NCBI GenBank assembly: GCA_951406725.2 | Contig: OX597825.1 | Coordinates: 43,400,001 to 43,464,000 of the forward strand | DNA length: 64,000 nucleotides | Reading direction: 5' to 3' | Origin: Octopus vulgaris | Taxonomy: Eukaryota | In this document: positions 7,216-58,077 of the stretch, one piece after another | Layout of the letters: every line of letters begins with the position of its first letter | Position numbering within the stretch: position 1 is the first letter of the stretch | Notes under the pieces: generated by a model | Told to the model about the DNA's origin: nothing | What the model saw: only the letters and a program-made list of their open reading frames with translations | Database searches by the model: none | Made by a program: the position numbers and the translations under genes

Positions 7216-7980
7216 TCTCCCCTTTTCGACTACCGTAGGAAAGGGAATAAGTCCTCAGAACATATTTTATTTTTTTTTATTTAGAAAATTTAATACCTTT
7301 TTCGTTTGGAAATTATTTCTAGGTGTACAGTATGTTCACTTTTTATGCTGCTGCTTCTACGAGGCTCGGTCTCTTTCGGTGCTGGCACCTCAGACATGCC
7401 ATATCAGACTTGCATGGGAATTTCCTTCCGTCTTTCGGTATGTCTCGTCTTTAATTGGTTATGGTGGCTCTAATGTTCCAACGTTGCCTTTCAGTTACAT
7501 ACATGATTCCTAATCTTTTAGATACAAAACCAACCGCCCAGCCCTCTTGATAATTTTTGAAAATTTCAAAATGAACTTTATCTCCTTCTTCGAAATGTTT
7601 TGTTGCCTTTTCTGTATTTCCTTTAAATATATGTTTTCGTGGCAATAATTTATCGAAGATCGGTTTTATTTTTCGTGCGAACATTAACTCTGCCGGAGAC
7701 TTTTCTGAACTGGTATCCTGATTAGGTGTTACTCTATATACCTTCAGGAATTTCGTTAGCGTTTCCGCATTTCCTACGTCATTCTTTACATTTTTAATGC
7801 CGGCTTGAAAGTAGTGACGAAGTTTTCTACCTGTCCGTTTGAACTTGGGTGGTAGGGCGGAGTAAAAATATTTTGCAGAATTTTTTGAATTCACTTCCCT
7901 TAAATTGTGCTCCATTATCTTATACCAACGTGTCTGGAACACCGTGTCGGGAAAATAATTCATGCAGGAACTTTATTGTT
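7216..7980 (-). mobile_element. Gypsy/Ty3 integrase fragment with PPT
   Basis: TIKFLHELFSRHGVPDTLV*DNGAQF; PPYHPSSNGQVENFV; YRVTPN..SPAELMFARK. Confidence 0.85.
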
Positions 7981-12551: not shown

Positions 12552-12772
12552 GTACTTGTTTCAGTCATTTTGACTGCGGCCATGCTGGAGCACCGCCTTT
12601 TAGAGTGGTGAAAGAGTACAGCAGGGATCACCACCTCCTGCCGGAGCCTCGTGGAGCTTTTAGGTGTTTTTTTCGCTCAATAAACACACACAACGCCCGG
12701 TCTGGGAATCGAAACCGCGATCCTCCGACCGCAAGTCCGCTGCCCTAACCACTAGGCCATTGCGCCTCCACA
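12551..12772 (-). mobile_element. Chimeric SINE: family A tRNA head with family B 3' tail
   Basis: 12602-12772 matches 56441-56606. 12551-12600 (GTTTCAGTCATTTTGACTGCGGCCATGCTGGAGCACCGCC) matches the family B tail at 33691-33728. Confidence 0.75.
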
Positions 12773-12786
12773 TATATATATATATA

Positions 12787-14082
12787 TTGTTGTTGGCATC
12801 CTTTTTGTCTCGGGAGACAATGGAGTTGCGCATAAAATAGTCCAGACCGGCTTTTACATTTCATGTCCTGATACATTTCTTGCTGTGGCTGTGTAGTCCT
12901 ATCCTGGACAAACACTCCCTCTGGCAGGTACCGTAAATGTAGCGAAGACTGTTCCTGGCTGGTTGTAGTGTCATAGTTTCTTGTTGACGTCTTTTCTTGT
13001 CTTTCCATTTCTCCTCTCTCTCTCTCTCTCTCTCTGTCACTCCTTTGTATTCCCTCTTTTACGGTACGTCGCCAATCTCCACGGTTGCTTGCAATTGCTT
13101 CCCAAATGCTAATATTGATGTTGCAGGCCTTCATGTCCCTTTTGCAAACATCCTTGTAACGTAAGAACGGTCTACCCACAGACCTAGTACCCCTAGCAAG
13201 CTCTCCGTAGAGTATGTCCTTGGGGATTCTGTCATCTTTCATACGGCTAACATGCCCAAGCCATCTCATATGTCTTTGTGTGAGGAGTGCAAACATGCTT
13301 GGTATTCCTGCTTGCTTGAGGGTATCTTTGTTGGGGATATGATTCTGCTATTTGATGCGGAGGATTTTCCGGAGGCAGCGCAGGTGAAAGATGTTTAGGC
13401 GACGCTCTTGGCGTGTGTATAGCGTCCAAGTCTCACTTCCATACAGTAGAGTGCTAAGTAAACATGCCTGGTAGATCTTCCTTATCGTGGTCTTGGTCAG
13501 CTTATTGTTGTCCCATGCCCGTTTGGAGAGTTGGGCCATCGCAGCAGCTGCCTTGCCAATGCGTATATTGAGCTCAGCGTCAAGGGATAGGTTGTAGGTG
13601 ACGGTAGAGCCAAGATAGGTAAACTTCTCCACCTCCTGTAATCTGTGGTCTCCAATATGTATGTTTGGGATATCCGATGTAGCCTGACCCATTATGCTGG
13701 TCTTCTTAAGGCTGATAGCTAAGCCAAAGTCGTTACATGTTTGCTCAAAACAGTTAATGAGCCTTTGGAGGGCTTCTTCTGTGTGTGATACCAGAGCGGC
13801 ATCATCAGCAAATAGCATCTCCTTGATCAGGACGTTTCTGATTTTGGTCTTGACGCGCAGGCGCGAGAGATTGAACAGTTTCCCGTCACTTCTACTGTGC
13901 AGAAACACTCCATCATCTAATGTCTGAAAGGCATGTGAGAGCAAGAGCGAGAAGAAAATGCCAAATAACGTAGGAGCGAGGACACAACCTTGCTTTACCC
14001 CGTTTTTTATTTGGAAGGCGGCTGATGTTGAACCATTGTGGTGTATGGTGCCTTGCATATCATCATGGAAAGACTTGGCCAC
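12787..14082 (-). mobile_element. 5'-truncated RTE-clade LINE (RT and 3' end)
   Basis: GVKQGCVLAPTLF, MLFADDAAL, FTYLGS, LLYGSETW, RWLGHVSRM..RIPKDILYGEL. 3' end CCATTGTCTCCCGAGACA..GATGCCAACAACA. Confidence 0.92.
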
Positions 14083-15735
14083 TGTCTGGTCCAAAATGTA
14101 ATTTATAAATGTACAATAATGACTTTAAATAATAGCTATCTTTATTCCGGTTGTTCGGTAGATCTAAAAACACGTTTAAACAACCATTTAAATATAAGGC
14201 AGGTTGCACAACATTCTCCAGTAAAATTTGGGAACTGAAAAGAAATAATATAGAATTTAACCTGAAATGGGATATAGTAAGAAAGGCACGGCCTTTTAAA
14301 AATAGTAGAGAGGGTTGTGAACTTTGTTCTATGGAAACATATGAAATTTTAAAACATAGGAATAATAGAAACTTGTTAAATAACCGTTCTGAACTAGGAG
14401 CATCTTGCATACATTGCACAACCCGTACGTTTAAATATTTTGAATAATAATATTGGGACCATTCCTAAATTTTCAAATTCTAATACTTTATAACTAAATA
14501 AGAATGAATATACCATACTAGCTTTTATTCAACATGCACAGATTACTAAAAAACTTCATTGCATATTTAGAATTAAATTCTCTTTTTTTTCTGATAATCT
14601 CCTATATTAAATAGAAAACATTCTATGTCTCTAAGGAAATTATTCAGTTCATCTTGATTACCTCACTTCCATATTTTAATATATTATTGACCCCGGATAT
14701 TTTTACCTAACTGATTAGTTTTTTCTCTGCGGGTAGTAAATATTATGTCTAACAGATTTTTTAATTTAATTCATTAATAACAAATCACCATCAACTAAAT
14801 CTAAGAAAATTACTCTTCTTGATTACTTCTCTTCCTAAAAATAAATCACCATCTACTAAACCTAAGAAAATGACTCATCTTGATTACTCCTCTTCCGCTT
14901 TTTCCATTATATATTATCAACTCCTAATATATTCACTTAATTAATAAGACTTTTGTTATTGAATATTATGCCTACTCATAATAAATGATAGTTTTTTTCT
15001 CTAAACTTAATAAATATTAGATTTAAAATTCTCTTTTAATCCAACTTATTAAAATAATCAGCACCTACTAGCTAAGTATAAATCTGATACATATTGGTAT
15101 ATGTTTGTATAAGTGTAAAGGAATCTCTGTATTTTCTATAACTATTTAGTATATAGATGATTATTGTGACCATTTAGCATTGACCTAGTTTTCTTGATAC
15201 AAAATCTGATTGCCAAATAGTAGGATACAGCCTCTAAGACAGTATAATCCCCCTTCCACTTTAATTTCTTCAGGAATAACTTTTGACATTTATTTCACCC
15301 CTACCTATTTCTATAAATAGAAAATCTCTTTTGTCTCCATTCAACAGAATATCCCTCCCCACTTTCTAGCAGATCAAAATAACTTAAAGAAAATCTTCAG
15401 TCAGAAGATAAATTCTAATACCTTAATGTTCTTAACATTTAAATCAACATCTCTGTCTGTATATCTACCCTCTTTATAATGTTATCAATTAACATGAAAA
15501 TAAGTATATGTATTGATGGAAAACCTCTATAAATGTCTGATGATTGCTCAATATTTTTAAAATGTTGTAATACTTACAATGTTTAATAAAATGATATAGC
15601 GTGAAACGATCATACCAAATTACCGAAGATATTCTTGTTGCTTATTTTGATTATAATCACCCTATGGGTTTATATAGATAACACCGTACAAAGTTCTGGT
15701 GCATCTGATTCATTTGAATCTAAATTTTGCTGAAT
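14083..15735 (+). mobile_element. Naiad-type PLE 3' part: GIY-YIG, long 3' UTR and pLTR with degenerate HHR (~15537-15613)
   Basis: CLVQNVIYKC..YSGCS..KTRLNNH; KWDIVRKA..CELC..LLNNRSEL..CIH; CTGATGA...GAAACGATCATA. The tail is homologous to 20087-20240 and 58100-58265. Confidence 0.75.
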
Positions 15736-17969: not shown

Positions 17970-18160
17970 GGTCCCGGGTTGATTCGGGGTTAACCACAGT
18001 AAATAAGGTACTCAATACATAGCAGAGTAAAATTAATTTATTATATAGAAGGAGCTTCTACAGGACTAGAACTGTTTCATTCAAGAGAAATCATCAGGAA
18101 GCTCCAGATGATTTCTCTTGAATGAAACAGTTCTAGTCCTGTAGAAGCTCCTTCTATATA

Positions 18161-32386: not shown

Positions 32387-32834
32387 AGAAGTAACAACAT
32401 TGTAGCTCTTCACTCCGACATTCAAAGCTACGAGCACTATGACAACCTTTTACTGTTTGTTCTCGATTATAACACACAAACACACACATATATATATACA
32501 CACATATACATATATATATATATATATATATATGTACGTGTTTGTATGTATGTATATATATACATACATATATGTGTATATGAATATACGCATATATATA
32601 TGTATGTATACATACATACACACGCACAGACACATATATACAGCTGCCTGGCACCTGGATGACGAAAAGAAGAAAATACTCCATTTCTTTATGAAGATAA
32701 TCGGTGCTCAGTACCATAGCATACAAAATACATTTACAATTACAACCGTACAATAATACAGTATATTACATTTGTATTTGAAACATGTGTGCTTCAACCT
32801 TCGTGAATATTACGCACATTGTATGTATATATAC

Positions 32835-34168: not shown

Positions 34169-34611
34169 AGCCTTGACCAAAAATATTAGGCTACCTCAAT
34201 GTTTTGGGGTTCTGCTCTCTCAGTGTTAATGAAACTTGCACATGGTAGATTATAGTATATTTCAAAATATACATTACTTTTAATATCTAGTTGATCCTCC
34301 TTTAGCATCAGTTACTCATAATTGGTTGCATATGTACTGTACGTATGCAACCAATTATAGGTAAGACCAACGTCCAAAATTAACTTATATTTCCTTGATT
34401 ATTTCTGAGTTTTATGCTGAAATACGTTCTGAATACAGATAATAAACAGTAAAATGCCTAAAACAAAGGAGTTGAGTGAGTGAGCGAAGTCAAATCGTAC
34501 CTCATCATGAAGATGGAATTTCTCAAAGGCAAATTGCTCATAAGTTAAAAAGTTATCGATGTGCGATGCAAACGACTCTCAAGCGCTTCAGGAAAACAAA
34601 AGATGTGAAGA
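34168..34611 (+). mobile_element. Tc1-like 5' end (TIR and paired-like HTH start)
   Basis: TA followed by CAGCCTTGACCAAAAATATTAG; MPKTKELSE..DGISQRQIAHKL..QTTLKRFRKT. Confidence 0.7.
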
Positions 34612-35880
34612 AAGATATTCTTAGGTTTAGTAGAAAGTGATATTTTATAATATGAAGAGAGGTCATTTGGAAGAGTAAATTATTCAAATTTCATCGATAG
34701 TGAGTTGATATTAATGAATTAAAGTATAGGATCTATTGGGATTAAAATTTACTACCTGCGGATAAAAGTTAATTAAATAGGTAAAAATATCTTAGGTTAA
34801 TTATATATTAAGAAATGGGAGTGAGATAATCAGGATTAACCAAATAGTTTCCCTAGGGACATAGGATTAACACTACTTAGTATTGGAAAACATTATAAAA
34901 AAGAAGAATTTATTTCTCAGTTTGCAGTGAAGTTTTTTAATCATTTATGAGTGTTAAACTAAAACCAGTATGGTATATTCGTTCCTATTTGGTTAAATAT
35001 ATATTGTGTAAAGATATCTTAGACTAATTATATATTAAGAAATGGAAGTGAGATAATCAAGGTGAATCGAATAGTTTCTTTAGGGACATAGGATTTATAC
35101 TATTTAGTATTCCTACTATTTGGGATTCATACTATTTAGGGTTCCAACTATTTAGATTCATAGAGTTTAATTTTAGAAAAAAGAAGGATTCAATTTTAAG
35201 TTTGCAGTGAAGTTTTTTAGTCATCTATGAATGTTAAATTGAAAGCCAGTATGGTATATCCCTTCCTATTTGGTTATAAAGAATAAAAATTTGAAAAATA
35301 TAGGAATATTCACAAAATTATTATTTAAAGTATTTAAACGTTCGGGTCGTACGATGTTTACAAGATACTCACAGCTGCAAACGGTTATTCAACAGATTTG
35401 TATTACTCTGATGTTTTAAAATTTCATAAGTTTCCATAGAACACAGTAGATAGTTAATTTCCTAGACGTTACCTTAGACTTAAATTCAAAGTTACATTAC
35501 CCATTTAGAAAAGAGGGCGAAATTACCAAATATGTAAGTAAGTCATCCAATCACCCCCTGAATATACTAAAATCATTAGTTAAAATATTTCTCAGAGAAT
35601 TTCAAAATTATCATCAAATAGTGAAATCTTTAACTCTACTCTTCCAAATGACCTCTCTTTATATTATAAAGTATCACTTTCTACTAAACCTATAAATATC
35701 TTCTTTCTTTGATTTTCCCTCTTCCATCTTTCTTAGTATATATTTTGACCCCTAATATGTTCACTTGATTAATAAGGCTTTTCCCCCTAGTTAATAAGTA
35801 CTATGCCTACTCATAATAAGTGATAGTCTTTTTCTCCAAATTGAATAAATTTTGGATTTATATTTTTTCCTTTATTCTAA
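34612..35880. mobile_element. Rearranged Naiad-type PLE: minus-strand EN end and 3' UTR, plus-strand thumb
   Basis: 35280-35446 is a reverse-complement homolog of 14325-14480. 35452-35635 reads [34 protein letters not shown]. Inverted repeat 34612-34677 / 35636-35702. Confidence 0.75.
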
Positions 35881-35938
35881 CGTGTCAAAGTACTTGGAAC
35901 TTATGGACTAACTGTTGTGATGATGTGCCCGTTAGGCA

Positions 35939-35981
35939 TCTGGAGACATGTTTCAGGGTATTTTCCCTTTATCAATGCAGA
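35939..35981 (-). ncRNA. Minimal hammerhead, U3-A8 variant (stem I mismatch)
   Basis: Direct repeat of 36300-36342, 361 nt away. Confidence 0.65.
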
Positions 35982-36299
35982 GTAGCCGAACCCAGCAGGC
36001 GTCGCTGCTGACCGTCTGTTCGAAGGATTATTCACCTAATTTCAGTGGAATGCATCCACTGGTTTTCAGAAATAGAAATATTATTATTTCTAATTCTCTC
36101 TAAAGTAGACTATGGCAGCGGTACTGAATACTAACAGCTATCACCGAGCTAATATGGCAGTCCATAAATATAGGACGAAAGCTGCCGTTGATTAGCTCCA
36201 AGAGGCCATCGCCTCTAGCTAGCTATATGACACACGAACCTGTGTCCATTATAACCTTCGAACAGGGGAGGTCAGTCGCTTCCCCTTGCTTGTCAGGCA

Positions 36300-36342
36300 T
36301 CTGCAGACATGTTTCAGGGTATTTGCCCTTTATCAATGCAGA
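36300..36342 (-). ncRNA. Minimal hammerhead, U3-A8 variant
   Basis: TCTGCA-TTGATAA-AGGG CAAATA CCCT-GAAA-CATG-TC-TGCAGA. Confidence 0.8.
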
Positions 36343-36928
36343 GTAGCCGGTGACAATCTGCCTGGCATCTGTATAACGAAAAGAAGAAAATACTCCATTT
36401 CTTTATGAAGATAATCGGTGGCAATCTGTTCGTTAGCAAATAGGAATAGAAATGTTTTTAACGATAGAACCAGTAATATTTTTGGGAAGATTTCAATTCT
36501 TACTTACGCATTTAAGGTTATTTAAGAGTTTGTAGTACGGTTCTCATACTCTTCTCCAAATTAACTTTTAGAAAATTCATTTTACTATCTTCATTTTCAA
36601 CGATTTAAAGAGTCTTTACCAGGATCTCCCTAGATTTACATTAGTAGCTTTAGATACAGTAAGATTCATGATCCCTAGCCTAGAATATGATTACATTTGA
36701 ATTCTAAAATCTCTTCACCCACCTTGAAAAAAGCTGCATGGGAATGTCTGCCTCGGATGAATGTGTACTGCAACTGAATCAACTAAATTAATATAAATGT
36801 TATATCAAAGAAAATTAGAACACTTATCAAGCAGAAGCATGTCAGATTGGAATTTTACGCGAATAATACTGTAATAAACAAATTTTGAAGATGTATAATT
36901 CTACATTCTTCTTTATAATGTCTTGATC

Positions 36929-44059: not shown

Positions 44060-46630
44060 CAACGTTTTTAGACAGAGTAGAGAGACACAGGGACACAAGT
44101 TGGAACATATCTTACGGGAGAAATCCAAAATAATCAATTTATCTAAGAAAACTCTCTCCCCAACAAAAGTCCATATTTAAAATTTACACCCATTCCACGT
44201 AGACCCAACGCCAATTAGATTAAAGATAATATTGCAGAATTCTGTAGAAAACTTCGATTGACAGAAGCACTAACAAACTACAACAACGATGACGAATCAC
44301 TAGTGAGAAACAAAAGTAATTATCTATCGCCCAAAGGAAGGAATAAAACACAAGACGACTTCTGCATCCGTATCCAAAATTTTCCTCACACTATCTATAA
44401 ACCAAATATTGTACCTAACTTCAACAACATACAATGGAATCCCCTACTACAGCTAAAAAACGACAAAGACCTGACAGTCAAAGAAGCAGACAAATGTAGT
44501 GCTGTAGTAGGGATGGATACAGAATACTATAAAAACCTAGCATTGTCCATACTAGAAAATGACTCTTTTATGAAAAAGTTGCAAATTATAGGCAGTAAAA
44601 ATCTTTTTAAAATCTTGGAACTTTACTACTCCAACACGGAAAAAGCCTGATAGAAAAAGTAAAAGACTACATCACAAAGTTCAAATGCAAACCAAGCCTT
44701 TTCTATGGCCTCCCCAAAATCCACAAGAGTCAAATAATTACTAATGCCTGCAAATTATACATAAATATTGCAACACCAGAAGACTTAAAATTAAGGCATA
44801 TTATTGCTGGCTCAACCTGTGAAACACCGCGTAACCAACTTTCTGGACATACTATTGAAACCTTTCCTCAAATACATTAAAAGTTTCATTAGAGACGATC
44901 TGGACATGCATCTACCAAAAACCACCAACGAAGAAGCTATATTAGTCTCCTTCGATGTCATCAACCTCTACACTAACATTCCACATGACTACGGAATAGA
45001 GGCAAGAAAATTCTGGTTAGAAAAATACCTCGAAGTTCTTCTGGGCCATATAAACCAGATTTTTGTCATTGAATCCCTGAAGTTCATCCTACAAACAATT
45101 ACTTCATATTCGATACACCATACTACCGCCAAAAATGCGATATTGCAATGGGAAAGAAAGCAGCAACTGTCCTTGCGAACCAAATAACAAGTTTCTTTGA
45201 ATCTACCCTATATGACCTTTCGCTCCAAAAATTTGGAATCCCATTCCACCAGTATATAGGAGAAAACTGGAATAGGTACCAAGACGATTGTTTTATCATC
45301 TGGAATGAAACCGATGATAAACTCCTGGATTTTAAATTCACACTGAACAATATAAACCCCAACATCCAATTTACAATAGAATATAGCAAGGAACAGCTCC
45401 CATTTCTTGACATTTTGATTTTAAAATAGTCCAACAACCATATTACAACCGACATTTACTACAGACCAACAGACTCAAAACAGTATCTCCTTTTCAGTTC
45501 ATGCCATCCTAAACACACCAAAATAAATATCCCCTTCAATCTACCAAGAAGAATATGTACAATTGTATATGACACAACCACTCGGAAACTTCGCCTACAA
45601 GACCTCAAAATAACACTCATAACACTCATTGAACGACAATACCCACCTACAGAACATGGATTTAAACGTACCAAGAAACTGGACACAAACACACTAAGGA
45701 CAATAAAACAAAGCACCACACCTCACTTTAAATCATTCCCATACATATCAACCCACAACCCCAGAAACAATGAAGCGTACAATACAATTGTACAAAATCT
45801 CCCTCTGCTCACTCAAGACCCGAAAATGAACAGCATCCTAAATACACACAAACTACTAAAATGCAAAACACAAGACAAATCACTCAAGAGACTCCTAAAA
45901 ATGCAAAACTATACTCAATACATAGGATATCAACAGTTAAAAAATGTAGGCGACCTAATTGTGGTACATGCCCATACCTTACTGAAGGCTCGGAATTCAC
46001 ATTCCAGCAAGGAGAAAAATTCTCAATTAAGACCAACTTCAAATGTCCTAACCTGCTCAGGTTGTGGTCACAATTATGTGGGCTAAACGAGTCTTACTTT
46101 GAGACGCAGAGTCCCGCGGCATAAAGAACAGATTCGTTTCCCTCAATACAAGCAGATAGCACTGAGCGGACATACCGACAGTTGCGCAAGTAATAAAACG
46201 CCGAATTTTCATATCTTCCCATTATACCAATGCAAAGATTCATTCTCAGTACAAGAACGCCTAAACAAGGAAAACCTATTCATACAAAAGTACAGACCAC
46301 ACCTCAATATACAAATTTAACCATTTTAAAAATTATACCAAAGAGCCAGTTGACCCCTTGCCACCTGTTGCTTCCCTAGGTTCACTCTCTAGACTCATTT
46401 TTATTTTTCAAACATCCAAAATGACGAAACCTCTCAGTCACGAGAATTGATTACTGTACAATGTTCCTTGAAAAGCTAATTTAAATAGTAGAAACCGGTT
46501 GGATTTCACGACATCCATATAATATGTATATATTTATATAATGATTTTAAACTATATGAAACGAAGGCATTTCGTTTCTCTTCCACTTTTTATATTTTTC
46601 CACATATTTTCAACTCATAATTTTGAAACG
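44060..46630 (+). mobile_element. Near-complete decayed Penelope-like element (Neptune-type), RT and GIY-YIG
   Basis: KEADKCSAVV; FYGLPKIHK; SFDVINLYTNIP; WNRYQDDCF; LPFLDI; YRPTDS..SCHPKH; CRRPNCGTC; CSGCGHNYVG; KENLFIQKY. Confidence 0.9.
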
Positions 46631-49300: not shown

Positions 49301-50056
49301 CTAGATTGAAGGGATATTCATCCTGGTGTGTCTGGGGTGGCATGAATTGAATGGAAGATATTGCTTAGAGTCTGTAGGCTTATGGTATATGTCTGTTTCT
49401 ATTATATTATTAGCTTTCTTAATGAGGATATCGAGGAAGGGGAGTTGTTGTTGGCTATATTCCATCATGAATTGGATATTTACGTCCAGTCCGTTTAAAA
49501 TTTTCTGGAATTCTATGAGTTTTTCTATATTTTTATGCCAAAGGATGAAACAGTCATCTAGGTATCTCTTCCAGTTGTTTTCTATGTAGATGGAGAAAGG
49601 GCTGCCATATCTTTCTAGAACCTTACGATACAGACTGATCTCTAGGTATCCTATGACTAGGTTGGCAAAGGAGGGGGCCATTCGTGTACCCATCGCAGTC
49701 CCCGATTTTTGTCGGTAGAAGTTGTCATTGAAGGCGAAGTTATTTTCCAGGTTGAATTTAACCCCTTCTATCACAAATTCTTTTTTGATGCGGTGTGGTA
49801 GTTCGTTGGCGTGATTCTCTAGCCAGAATTGGATTGCCTCTAGTCCTAGGTTGTGGGGGATATTGGAGTAGAGGTTGACTACATCGAAGGATACCAGTAT
49901 GGTGTTTTTGTTTATAGTATTCGGTAGGTGATTGAGTATATCTAAGTCGTCCCTTATATAGCTTTTGACATGTTTGAGGAGTGGTTTTAACAGGGTGTCT
50001 AAAAAGTTACTGAGGCGGTGGGTTTCGCATGCGGGACCTGCTATTATGGGTCTCAA
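49301..50056 (-). pseudogene. Penelope-like reverse transcriptase (5'-truncated, frameshifted)
   Basis: 251 aa ORF with RT motifs 3-7 and thumb (YHKPTD..NSCHPRH). Confidence 0.9.
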
Positions 50057-51400
50057 TTTGAGGTCATTAGGATTAGGGACTTTAATTATTTTGTCTGTAG
50101 CTATCTTGCATGCGTTGCGTATTTTTTAACTTTTGTGGATCTTAGGTATACCGTCCTCCACAACATACCCCTCCTAAAAAAAGACCACAGAATGAACACA
50201 ATCCTCCAAACACACACGATCATAAAAAGCAAAAGACAGCCTAGATCCATGAAAAGTCTCCTTACACAAGCCCGAATTCACTCTTCAACACAGAAGCCGA
50301 CAGTAAAAAAATGTGGAAGGACCCAATTGCGGGATATGCGACTACCTAATTGAGGGATCAGAGTTCTCCTTCAAACAGGGACAACGGTTTACAGTGAAAA
50401 GCAACTTCACATGTGCTTCGGAGAACCTAATATACTCACTAACCTGCTCTGGGTGTCAAGAGCAGTACATAGGCCAAACAAAAAATGGTTTGCGTAAACG
50501 AATGGCCCTGCACAGATCCCAGATAAAAATTCCCCAAAACAGAAAAATAGCTTTTAGCCAACACATAGATACTTGCGCCAACAAAAAAACACCAAACTTC
50601 AGAATTTTCCCCTCTACCAATTTAGGGACGATACAACCTCGAGACAACGAATAAGTAAAGAAAATCTCTTTATTACAAAATACAAGCCACTTCTTAACGG
50701 GTCTACGACAAACAATTAATATACCTCAACTTTAGAATAAAAGAAATATATATACACACACAAATATTACACTCCATAGAATCCATTACTAATCAGCCCC
50801 ATCAAAGCTATACTTACACCCATTCATATTCTCCCTTCTCTGTTTTTTTCTTCTTCTTCTTCTTCCTCTTCTTCTTCATCATCATCATTATCATCATCAT
50901 CGTCGTCATCATCATCACCACCATCATCACCACCATCTTCTCCTTCTCCTTCTCTTCTTCTTCTTCTTCTTCTTCTTCTTCTTCTTCTTCTTCTTCTTCT
51001 TCTTCTCATCATCATCATCATCATCAACATTGTCATCTTCTTCTTCTTCTACTTCTCCACCTTCCACCCCTTAACCTTGTCACTAATGTCTTTCAGTATA
51101 ACGCCTACGCAAATTCCATAAACAATTCCTGAATTGAACTGCGACTACTGTCAGCCACTGTCAGCCACTGACCATTCAAAATACGACCATTAAGGCATTC
51201 CCAGATTTCCCCACCCCTCTCCACATCAGCCTCATTATTCTTCACCTATCCTACCAAGAACTCAAAACGACCTCGAACACACAAGTGCAAACAAGGGAGT
51301 CAGAGAAAGGCAGAATGCTACTTATATCTGAACACTACTACAGAAATATTCTTTTAAAAAAACTTTTCTTCTAATTTTTCTAAATTTAATTATTTAATCG

Positions 51401-56788: not shown

Positions 56789-58077
56789 CAGGGTGAGGAA
56801 GCAAAATTTACAATATTTTGAGGCAGGGATTGAAAGACAGTGTATGACCAATTATTTTATTGAAAGTTATGAGAATTTATTTGCCACAAGAAAATTTACA
56901 TAATAGAAAATGTTTTTATTCTATGTGTCCTCCTTCTTTCTCAATAACTGCCTTCACACACTTCCTGAAACTTGTACAAGTGTTCCTCAAATATTCGGGA
57001 GACAACTTCTCCCATTCTTCTATAATAGTATCTTTAAGAGAGTCGACATTGCTGTGTGATGTTCTATTGGTAGCATGTTCTAAAACGCCCCAAATAGCAT
57101 AATCCAGAGGGTTTAGATCTGGGCTAGAAGGCGGCCATAAATATGATTCCCAAAAATCGCTAAAGTTGGATTTGCAGAAATCTTGTATTTTTCTGGCTGT
57201 GTGGGCTGGAGCACCATCCTATGTCCATACATAATTACCATCTGGGTAGTTTGCTTTAGGCCATGACAATACCTGGTATCTCAGAGTCTTGTAGTAAGTA
57301 TTAACATTGATCTTTTCATCAGCTTTGTAGAATTTTATAGGCATTTTCTTTCCATCGGAAGCCACAACACCAAAAGCCATAACTTGTGCAGGATGTTTTG
57401 TTTTGAATGTCCCCTTAACCTCAGCTGTTGATTTTGCAATAACTCTGTCATTTCTGCGGTTCAGAACAGCATCGACAGTGAAAATCCTTTCATCTGAAAA
57501 GATTGTTACAATGGAGGACTTTTTCTTGAACCATGTAATAATTTTCTTGCACCTCTCCAATCTCTTTTCCTTCATAGCTGTTGTCAACAAATGTTTTGGT
57601 GTTCTTGTGTACGATTTTAACCTCAAATCATATTTTACTGCATTTCTAATGGTCTTCTTGTCTACCTCAAGTTCAATTGCATTTTTCTCATTGATTTGGT
57701 TGGATCCTTTAGGATTTTGGATTTGAGAGCTTTAATAAAAGCTTTGGTACGTTTTTTGTTGATTCCTCCACTTCCAGACTTCCTCGTAATAGTTTTGCTC
57801 ATAGTTATTCTATTCTTTACATTATAAACAGTCTTTATGGACACTCCAACTATCCTTGAAATCTCCTTTGGTGTGACGAGTGCATTCAGCAAATCACACA
57901 CTCTTTGACGTTTGCTTTCCTAATTACTCATATGGGCAAAAGTTTCTGAAAAGGTAAGGATAATAGTGTTAGATATGAGTATGACATCAGTATATGCTAG
58001 GTTTCAAAGCAATTGACTTAGTGCCTCCTGAGAAAAAGCAACTTAACGTTCATTGTAAATTTTGCTTCCTCACCCTG
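56789..58077 (-). mobile_element. Full-length maT (DD37D) Tc1/mariner transposon with pseudogenised transposase
   Basis: 26-bp TIRs CAGGGTGAGGAAGCAAAATTTACAAT with TA on both sides. FSDE..*DGAPAH..WPPSSPDLNPLDY has 37 residues between the 2nd and 3rd D. In-frame TAGs and a frameshift. Confidence 0.92.

Follow-up and report, generated by a model that had tools for sequence, protein, structure and literature searches.

We find that a 64,000-nt stretch of Octopus vulgaris contig OX597825.1 (hereafter the window) in all likelihood holds a truncated hammerhead retrozyme with a U3-A8 core, whose RNA is predicted to be self-cleaving, likely in dimeric form. The element belongs to a family likely inserted in trans at TA microsatellites in the manner of Penelope-like elements (PLEs), and its U3-A8 pair most likely goes back to the repair of a mismatch. 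The motif variant and the element class are known, and the family itself is new. The locus and its U3-A8 swap are ordinary in themselves; related subfamilies with a C3·A8 mismatch are a testable side result.

Two U3-A8 hammerheads lie on the minus strand

The minus strand from 36342 to 36300 reads as a type I hammerhead in the order UCUGCA (stem I), UUGAUAA core, AGGG/CCCU (stem II), GAA, AC-AU-GU (stem III), C17 and UGCAGA (stem I). U3 lies at 36336, A8 at 36331 and C17 at 36306, and GUC is the putative cleavage triplet, with the predicted cut after C17 at 36306. Against the core consensus 3-UGA-N-8-A...GAAA...UH the motif has UUGAUAA/GAAA/GUC, its Watson-Crick 3-8 pair being U3-A8 and not C3-G8. 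Stems I, II and III (6, 4 and 2 bp) surround the core and stem I is open-ended, which is the type I architecture. The 2-bp stem III is closed by AU, and its ACAUGU is predicted to be able to form a 6-bp self-duplex. The second motif, from 35981 to 35939 on the same strand, is spaced 361 nt from the first and is 94.8% identical to it over 58 aligned nt. The initial annotation had described two UUGAUAA motifs at this spacing, with a perfect 6-bp stem I and 4-bp stem II in the 36300 copy, and the sequence agrees on each point.

36300..36342, minus strand: intact type I hammerhead, core UUGAUAA, minimal stem III with palindrome; cut predicted after C17
35939..35981, minus strand: second hammerhead with the identical core and a C-C mismatch in stem I (35943); predicted impaired

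The mismatch at 35943 affects the second stem I pair from the cut, and the pair probability of the innermost two stem I pairs is about 0 in the second motif vs 0.85-1.0 in the first. The locus thus holds two consecutive hammerheads with intact cores, the second of which is broken in stem I beside the cut and is predicted from the fold to be impaired; the active-copy criterion of Li et al. (2026 preprint, 10.64898/2026.07.22.740005) is two complete ones. The window matches the core-and-stem pattern twice vs 0.01 expected, and none of 100 shuffles reached 2. Rfam reported no hammerhead in the 1-kb region at E <= 10, where it gave 4 weak unrelated matches, nor among the 150 of 205 matches listed over the window. 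A GUCC...GGAC-GAAA look-alike at about 36160-36186 was considered as a second hammerhead on the opposite strand and rejected, since it lacks the CUGANGA box and its GAAA is not conserved in the family alignment.

The unit between the cuts belongs to a dispersed retrozyme family

A search of the genome (G000, 2.8 Gb) showed that the sequence between both motifs is one monomer of a dispersed tandem family with a period of about 361 nt and at least 112 matches, many of them in tandem (40 of 2,763 candidates scored). In the window's own lineage of this repeat family, which we call lineage A, arrays consist purely of units set head to tail, with at most about 2.7 copies. The hammerhead had been described as duplicated; the second copy is real, but it is the overlap of a tandem retrozyme unit and not a separate duplication.

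35931..36349, minus strand: truncated retrozyme insertion, 1.16 units of the ~361-nt family, lineage A (genome family matches)
35945..36305, minus strand: predicted 361-nt monomer from cut to cut, non-coding, 45% GC (circular fold, ORF scan)
36008..36031, unstranded: inverted-segment arm 1, long stem of the predicted circular fold (fold, family copies)
36250..36275, unstranded: inverted-segment arm 2, partner side of that stem (fold, family copies)

The longest ATG ORF of the monomer is 51 aa. Folded as a circle, in a register shifted by 2 nt, the monomer has a z of -5.5 and none of 60 shuffles folds as well. The two arms, noted earlier as a small inverted segment between the hammerhead copies, are real and are retained across family copies, but they are better read as the two sides of one long stem in the unit's own predicted fold.

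The family shows the traits of non-LTR retrozymes: a tandem unit within 170-400 nt, one type I hammerhead in each, dispersal in many copies, no protein, GC below 50% and a strongly self-paired prediction. It also has the 1-2 bp stem III with palindromic loop of dimeric hammerheads. Because the 361-nt unit is ORF-poor, 45% GC, self-paired, tandem and dispersed, we liken it to the metazoan non-LTR retrozymes in the available text of Cervera and de la Peña 2020 (PMC7229834), such as the 350-390-bp Mytilus and 330-350-nt axolotl families, which share its unit size, single type I hammerhead per unit, tandem arrays, lack of ORFs, GC below 50%, self-paired predicted circle and short palindromic stem III. 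Unlike the retrozymes described in that text, the octopus family has a U3-A8 core and two fixed 3' ends into (TA)n. The words 'cephalopod' and 'octopus' are absent from the text of PMC7229834, and our search of main-text literature found no cephalopod retrozyme study. Four putative RNA runs hold family contigs among their assembled contigs, with a depth shape like that of four large untyped runs. A separate, very young retrozyme family of 352 nt (L183:820-1430, G000:C20) combines a canonical C3-G8 core with a palindromic loop 3 of 4 nt; 25 of its 46 matches are identical across 226 nt.

The window copy has probably lost its tail and lies beside a probable 63-bp templated insert

The lineage A copy in the window ends about 14 nt past the second cut, and both a TA flank and an inverted half are absent at the locus. 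Its left neighbour is a repeat remnant that itself ends mid-element: all 40 genome matches stop at 35927-35928, and beyond 35928 the 13 relatives of the left repeat that were examined all continue with sequence absent from the window. Because the neighbouring repeat is cut mid-element at 35928, the junction between retrozyme and neighbour is most likely a deletion, in which the normal 3' tail of the window copy was likely lost, and the ribozyme-to-ribozyme outline of the copy is for that reason partly accidental. The empty site was not recovered in assembled contigs; one contig spans 36320-36728, with only 30 letters on the element side, one fewer than the bridging rule demands. A further copy of the left-flank repeat, 72-81% alike, lies at 14321-15056 of the window.

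34591..35928, unstranded: neighbouring repeat remnant, one half inverted and one direct, with matches in sequence flanking Penelope-like ORF loci (genome matches)
36358..36420, plus strand: 63-bp insert outside the family, likely a template-switch copy of 32644-32706 (genome search, flanking repeats)
32644..32706, plus strand: likely donor of the 63-bp insert (95% identity)
36348..36360, plus strand: left 13-bp direct repeat, sharing 3 nt with the left end of the insert (12/13 vs 36416-36428)
36416..36428, plus strand: right 13-bp direct repeat, overlapping the insert's right end by 5 nt (12/13 vs 36348-36360)

The reported recurrence of 36358-36420 at 32644-32706 was confirmed at 95% identity over a distance of 3,714 nt, and it lies outside the retrozyme element. 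With only 2 matches in the genome search and none at the other fetched loci (224 searched), the 63-bp sequence was rejected both as a part of the family and as a target duplication. The 36358-36420 copy sits between the two 13-bp direct repeats (12 of 13 identical), and with up to 2 mismatches allowed the window has this repeat nowhere else. Local templated repair, copying from 3.7 kb away, most likely inserted the piece, by analogy with microhomology-mediated template switching. The three differences between the two 63-bp copies all fall in a 7-nt span close to the left end; they leave a word of 8 nt that the insert shares with the ribozyme's 3' side.

The insertion footprint of the family is of Penelope type

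Forty loci found with the pattern were examined for their ends; 30 belong to lineage A (two being overlapping duplicates) and comprise 42 segments, with positions counted from 2 nt after the predicted cut. The 5' ends of the initial family survey are biased by the query. Fixed ends were found in 28 of the 42 segments, 11 at about 175 nt past the cut and 17 at about 232 nt past it, and the other 14 end elsewhere. (TA)4 adjoins 27 of the 42 segments, and an inverted half is present at 12 of the 30 lineage A loci. A Penelope-type footprint of 5' truncation, partial tandems, inverted halves and (TA)n targets is therefore found family-wide and is absent at the window locus. These features are shared with PLE insertions, for which the available text of Craig et al. 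2021 (PMC8557442) describes 5' truncation, partial tandems, inverted 5'-truncated halves and (TA)n targets. Retrozymes are proposed as non-autonomous PLE derivatives in the accessible part of the preprint of Li et al. (10.64898/2026.07.22.740005). Unlike the PLE insertions of these two sources, the octopus family has no partner PLE in the one PLE-like group that we examined.

The same footprint would be expected if the unit were the pseudo-LTR (pLTR) of an autonomous Penelope-like element and its copies the truncated ends of that element, so that no stand-alone retrozyme existed. Precedents fit this alternative as well, since hammerheads in the pLTRs of PLEs have been reported with U3-A8 (Cervera and de la Peña 2014, PMC4209133) and Xenopus retrozymes are related to pLTRs (10.64898/2026.07.22.740005). 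We nevertheless regard it as highly doubtful, because lineage A arrays are pure head-to-tail units, no ORF is joined to a unit in a scan of 138 loci with flanks of mostly 1.5 kb, and the two PLE-like fragments that lie near units (L100, L136) are set apart from them by TA repeats. No unit flanking an ORF with reverse transcriptase and GIY-YIG was seen at these 138 loci, and none of 32 PLE-like stretches of one PLE-like group shares a terminal repeat with the monomers. These 32 stretches are called PLE-like on the basis of sequence motifs, and Pfam gave no match for the PLE-like ORFs of the partner search. An autonomous partner was not found in this group, and a truncated retrozyme copied in trans remains the preferred reading.

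Several other elements were recorded alongside. A young PLE-like family (L197-L201, L203, L205, L208) has ORFs of up to 981 aa with a near-identical C-terminus; the ORF of L197 has no Pfam match, and a relaxed scan found no hammerhead in this family. Within the window, reverse-transcriptase remnants lie at 49304-50125 on the minus strand (RVT_1 at 5e-9) and at 45430-46083 on the plus strand (no Pfam match), both with PLE-like motifs, and a LINE-type remnant lies at 12748-14124 on the minus strand, of which 13351-14124 matches RVT_1 at 1e-14. A long near-perfect hairpin adjoins a TA repeat at 18049-18153. Two open frames of about 170 aa each, at 57222-57731 and 7454-7972 on the minus strand, have no Pfam match; the former resembles a piece of a Tc1-type transposase.

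The 3-8 pair occurs in several states, including an amplified C3·A8 mismatch

The genome was scanned with a pattern of one fixed geometry, in which most core letters and the geometry of stem II are preset; the conservation of either therefore cannot be read from it, and subfamilies of other geometry are undercounted. In G000 it gave 1,426 matches, with 0 control matches: 80 C3-G8, 16 U3·G8, 56 C3·A8 and, by subtraction, 1,274 U3-A8. The earlier statement that CUGANGA-type searches miss the variant agrees with the lack of a hammerhead match in Rfam and with these counts: as only 80 of 1,426 matches have C3-G8, a search by CUGANGA would overlook the majority of the genome's hammerheads with this geometry. 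A family consensus with CUGANGA, or with only one of the two changes, had been named as evidence against a covarying pair; in lineage A neither was found, and U3-A8 is the norm.

Natural U3-A8 has been published and is not new. According to the portion of Perreault et al. 2011 (PMC3088659) available, C3-G8 covaries to U3-A8 in several natural ribozymes, and earlier in vitro activity of covarying pairs is cited there; the accessible text of PMC4209133 reports about 1,300 U3-A8 minimal hammerheads in the Cercyon Penelope-like elements of Schistosoma mansoni. The Cercyon hammerheads resemble ours in the U3-A8 covariation, the dimer architecture, their escape from a C3-G8 descriptor and their copy number of about 1,300. 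They lie in a pLTR beside a reverse-transcriptase ORF, as described in that text, whereas the octopus unit is non-coding and tandem, with 6-bp and 4-bp stems and a 2-nt palindromic loop. In contrast to the examples given in PMC3088659, the octopus superfamily includes an amplified C3·A8 family and a series of subfamilies linking the states. The search of main-text literature found no other amplified natural C3·A8 family.

The two mismatched states are distributed differently. Within the geometry of this pattern, subfamilies are formed by three states, C3-G8, C3·A8 and U3-A8, but not by U3·G8. The 16 U3·G8 matches are isolated copies spread over several backgrounds, whereas 29 of the 56 C3·A8 matches share one background and form a young subfamily of 21 loci that are 95-99% alike. 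Its 5' ends vary, its 3' ends are mostly the family's fixed points, and its tandem arrays carry C3·A8 in every matched unit. It is 98% alike to a C3-G8 subfamily, with stem I and the stem III palindrome common to both. Two C3·A8 insertions on one contig, 160 kb apart (L124/L125), have the same internal inversion junction and different flanks, and one may be a copy of the other. For an old C3·A8 subfamily, a C3·A8 query was used and the best 40 of 1,243 candidates were followed, giving 24 loci; among 34 matches examined, 14 were unreadable and the 20 readable cores comprised 16 C3·A8, 3 U3-A8, 1 G3 and 0 G8. Members of this old subfamily (L153-L176) have an A·A mismatch at the closure of stem II and often G at position 7, and judging from these letters its ribozyme may be weak or in another register.

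Two routes by which the young mismatch might have arisen or been rescued were considered. A-to-I editing, whether it turned A8 into G8 or rescued C3·A8, is not supported, as the locus-private changes show no A>G excess (7 A>G vs 4 T>C in 19 C3·A8 loci; 6 vs 9 in 12 C3-G8 loci). Both A/G sites are CpG, but an origin of young C3·A8 by decay of C3-G8 at CpG is disfavoured, since C3·A8 has the letters of its U3-A8 relatives at columns 91 and 182 and this reading needs extra reversals.

Subfamily relationships place young C3·A8 between the paired states

The main tree was built from 58 hand-chosen rows and 215 columns with positions 3 and 8 masked; an earlier tree had dropped 8 of 145 rows. Lineage A forms a single clade (100/100) whose sister is a group of old single-copy C3-G8 elements (98/81), with C3·A8 copies next (100/99). 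This old C3-G8 subfamily (L099-L104, L106-L109, L111-L113) consists of single truncated copies. In the distant lineage B, which is 51-53% alike to lineage A over the 215 columns, young C3·A8 has U3-A8 copies on one side (99/99) and a C3-G8 clade on the other (96/87). Topology tests rejected one clade of all C3·A8 subfamilies (p-AU 2e-6) and one of all U3-A8 subfamilies (1e-4); they did not reject lineage B rooted on the C3-G8 branch (p-AU 0.30), a single origin of A and B (0.16) or the old C3·A8 grade as a clade (0.09). Deep branches are weak because deep identities are 51-76%. On this tree, C3·A8 subfamilies spread at least twice, and the young one sits between both paired states, whichever direction the change ran.

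These placements bear on how the U3-A8 pair is to be read. The initial annotation took C3U plus G8A as a covariation that suggests selection for activity, which implies a strict compensatory pair whose single revertants are dead. The pair is indeed kept as U-A, with U3-A8 predominating (1,274 of 1,426); the U3·G8 matches are scattered singletons on several backgrounds, and single changes at the pair gave low activity in PMC9901934. C3·A8, however, forms coherent amplified subfamilies in which every matched tandem unit carries the mismatch, and the strict model can hold only where such RNAs are cleaved in trans by partner molecules or can do without cleavage; we consider it somewhat unlikely. 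Because C3·A8 subfamilies were amplified, the double change alone is no proof of selection for activity, and because relatives spread with a half-swapped, mismatched core, the 3-8 pair is likely not essential for jumping.

A more radical alternative holds that the hammerhead is largely dispensable, uncut multimeric transcripts of master arrays being copied directly while the 3-8 states drift under little selection. It would account for the repeated spread of C3·A8, for an old C3·A8 subfamily that also has the A·A mismatch closing stem II, for the many copies that are 5'-truncated fragments and for the poor in vitro cutting by PLE minimal hammerheads reported in the consulted part of PMC4209133. 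Yet the 3-8 pair is Watson-Crick in 1,354 of 1,426 matches, both neighbours of young C3·A8 are paired, and compensatory changes have preserved stems I and II as well as the palindrome of stem III among subfamilies that are only 51-76% alike. Base pairs of stems I and II are exchanged from one subfamily to another (A-U/G-C, C-G/G-C), and 133 of 145 motifs have a palindromic dinucleotide in loop 3, of which four versions occur (CG 51, AU 47, UA 30, GC 5). As far as sequence comparison goes, the compensatory stem swaps argue for long-term selection on the fold, and we judge dispensability unlikely. The preferred reading is that U3-A8 is most likely the second-site repair of a tolerated mismatch and not a jump across a dead state, because C3·A8 subfamilies stayed mobile.

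Proposed mechanism and implications

Transposition of the family would begin with transcription of a tandem array, followed by cleavage after GUC through an intermolecular stem III made by the palindrome, ligation into a self-paired circle and target-primed reverse transcription from two preferred points into TA microsatellites. Cleavage as a dimer is proposed because the stem III palindrome is kept (133 of 145) and in view of PMC6765202 and the accessible text of PMC4209133. Reverse transcriptase and endonuclease would be Penelope-like and act in trans, the source of the enzyme being our inference. The U3-A8 pair would have been inherited from the founder of the lineage, with nothing special to the window locus, and the 3-8 pair of the superfamily would have moved among C-G, C·A and U-A with C·A subfamilies staying mobile. 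In one type III hammerhead (PMC9901934) only a G3-C8 swap rescued activity, and the activity of U3-A8 here is accordingly a prediction.

For the spread of C3·A8 three readings remain: residual activity, trans-cleavage by relatives that have stem I and the palindrome in common with it, or dispensable cleavage. The second leads to a tentative and rather unlikely proposal, in which the pair walked through C3-G8, C3·A8 and U3-A8 and C3·A8 RNAs were mobile at least twice as 'cheater' retrozymes, cut in mixed dimers by relatives with a paired core. If this is true, such cheaters would bridge the fitness valley of a tertiary pair in a catalytic core. The family offers natural constructs that are almost identical apart from the 3-8 pair, which would allow testing both how much cleavage an animal retrozyme needs to spread and how a ribozyme core pair can change without a lost state.
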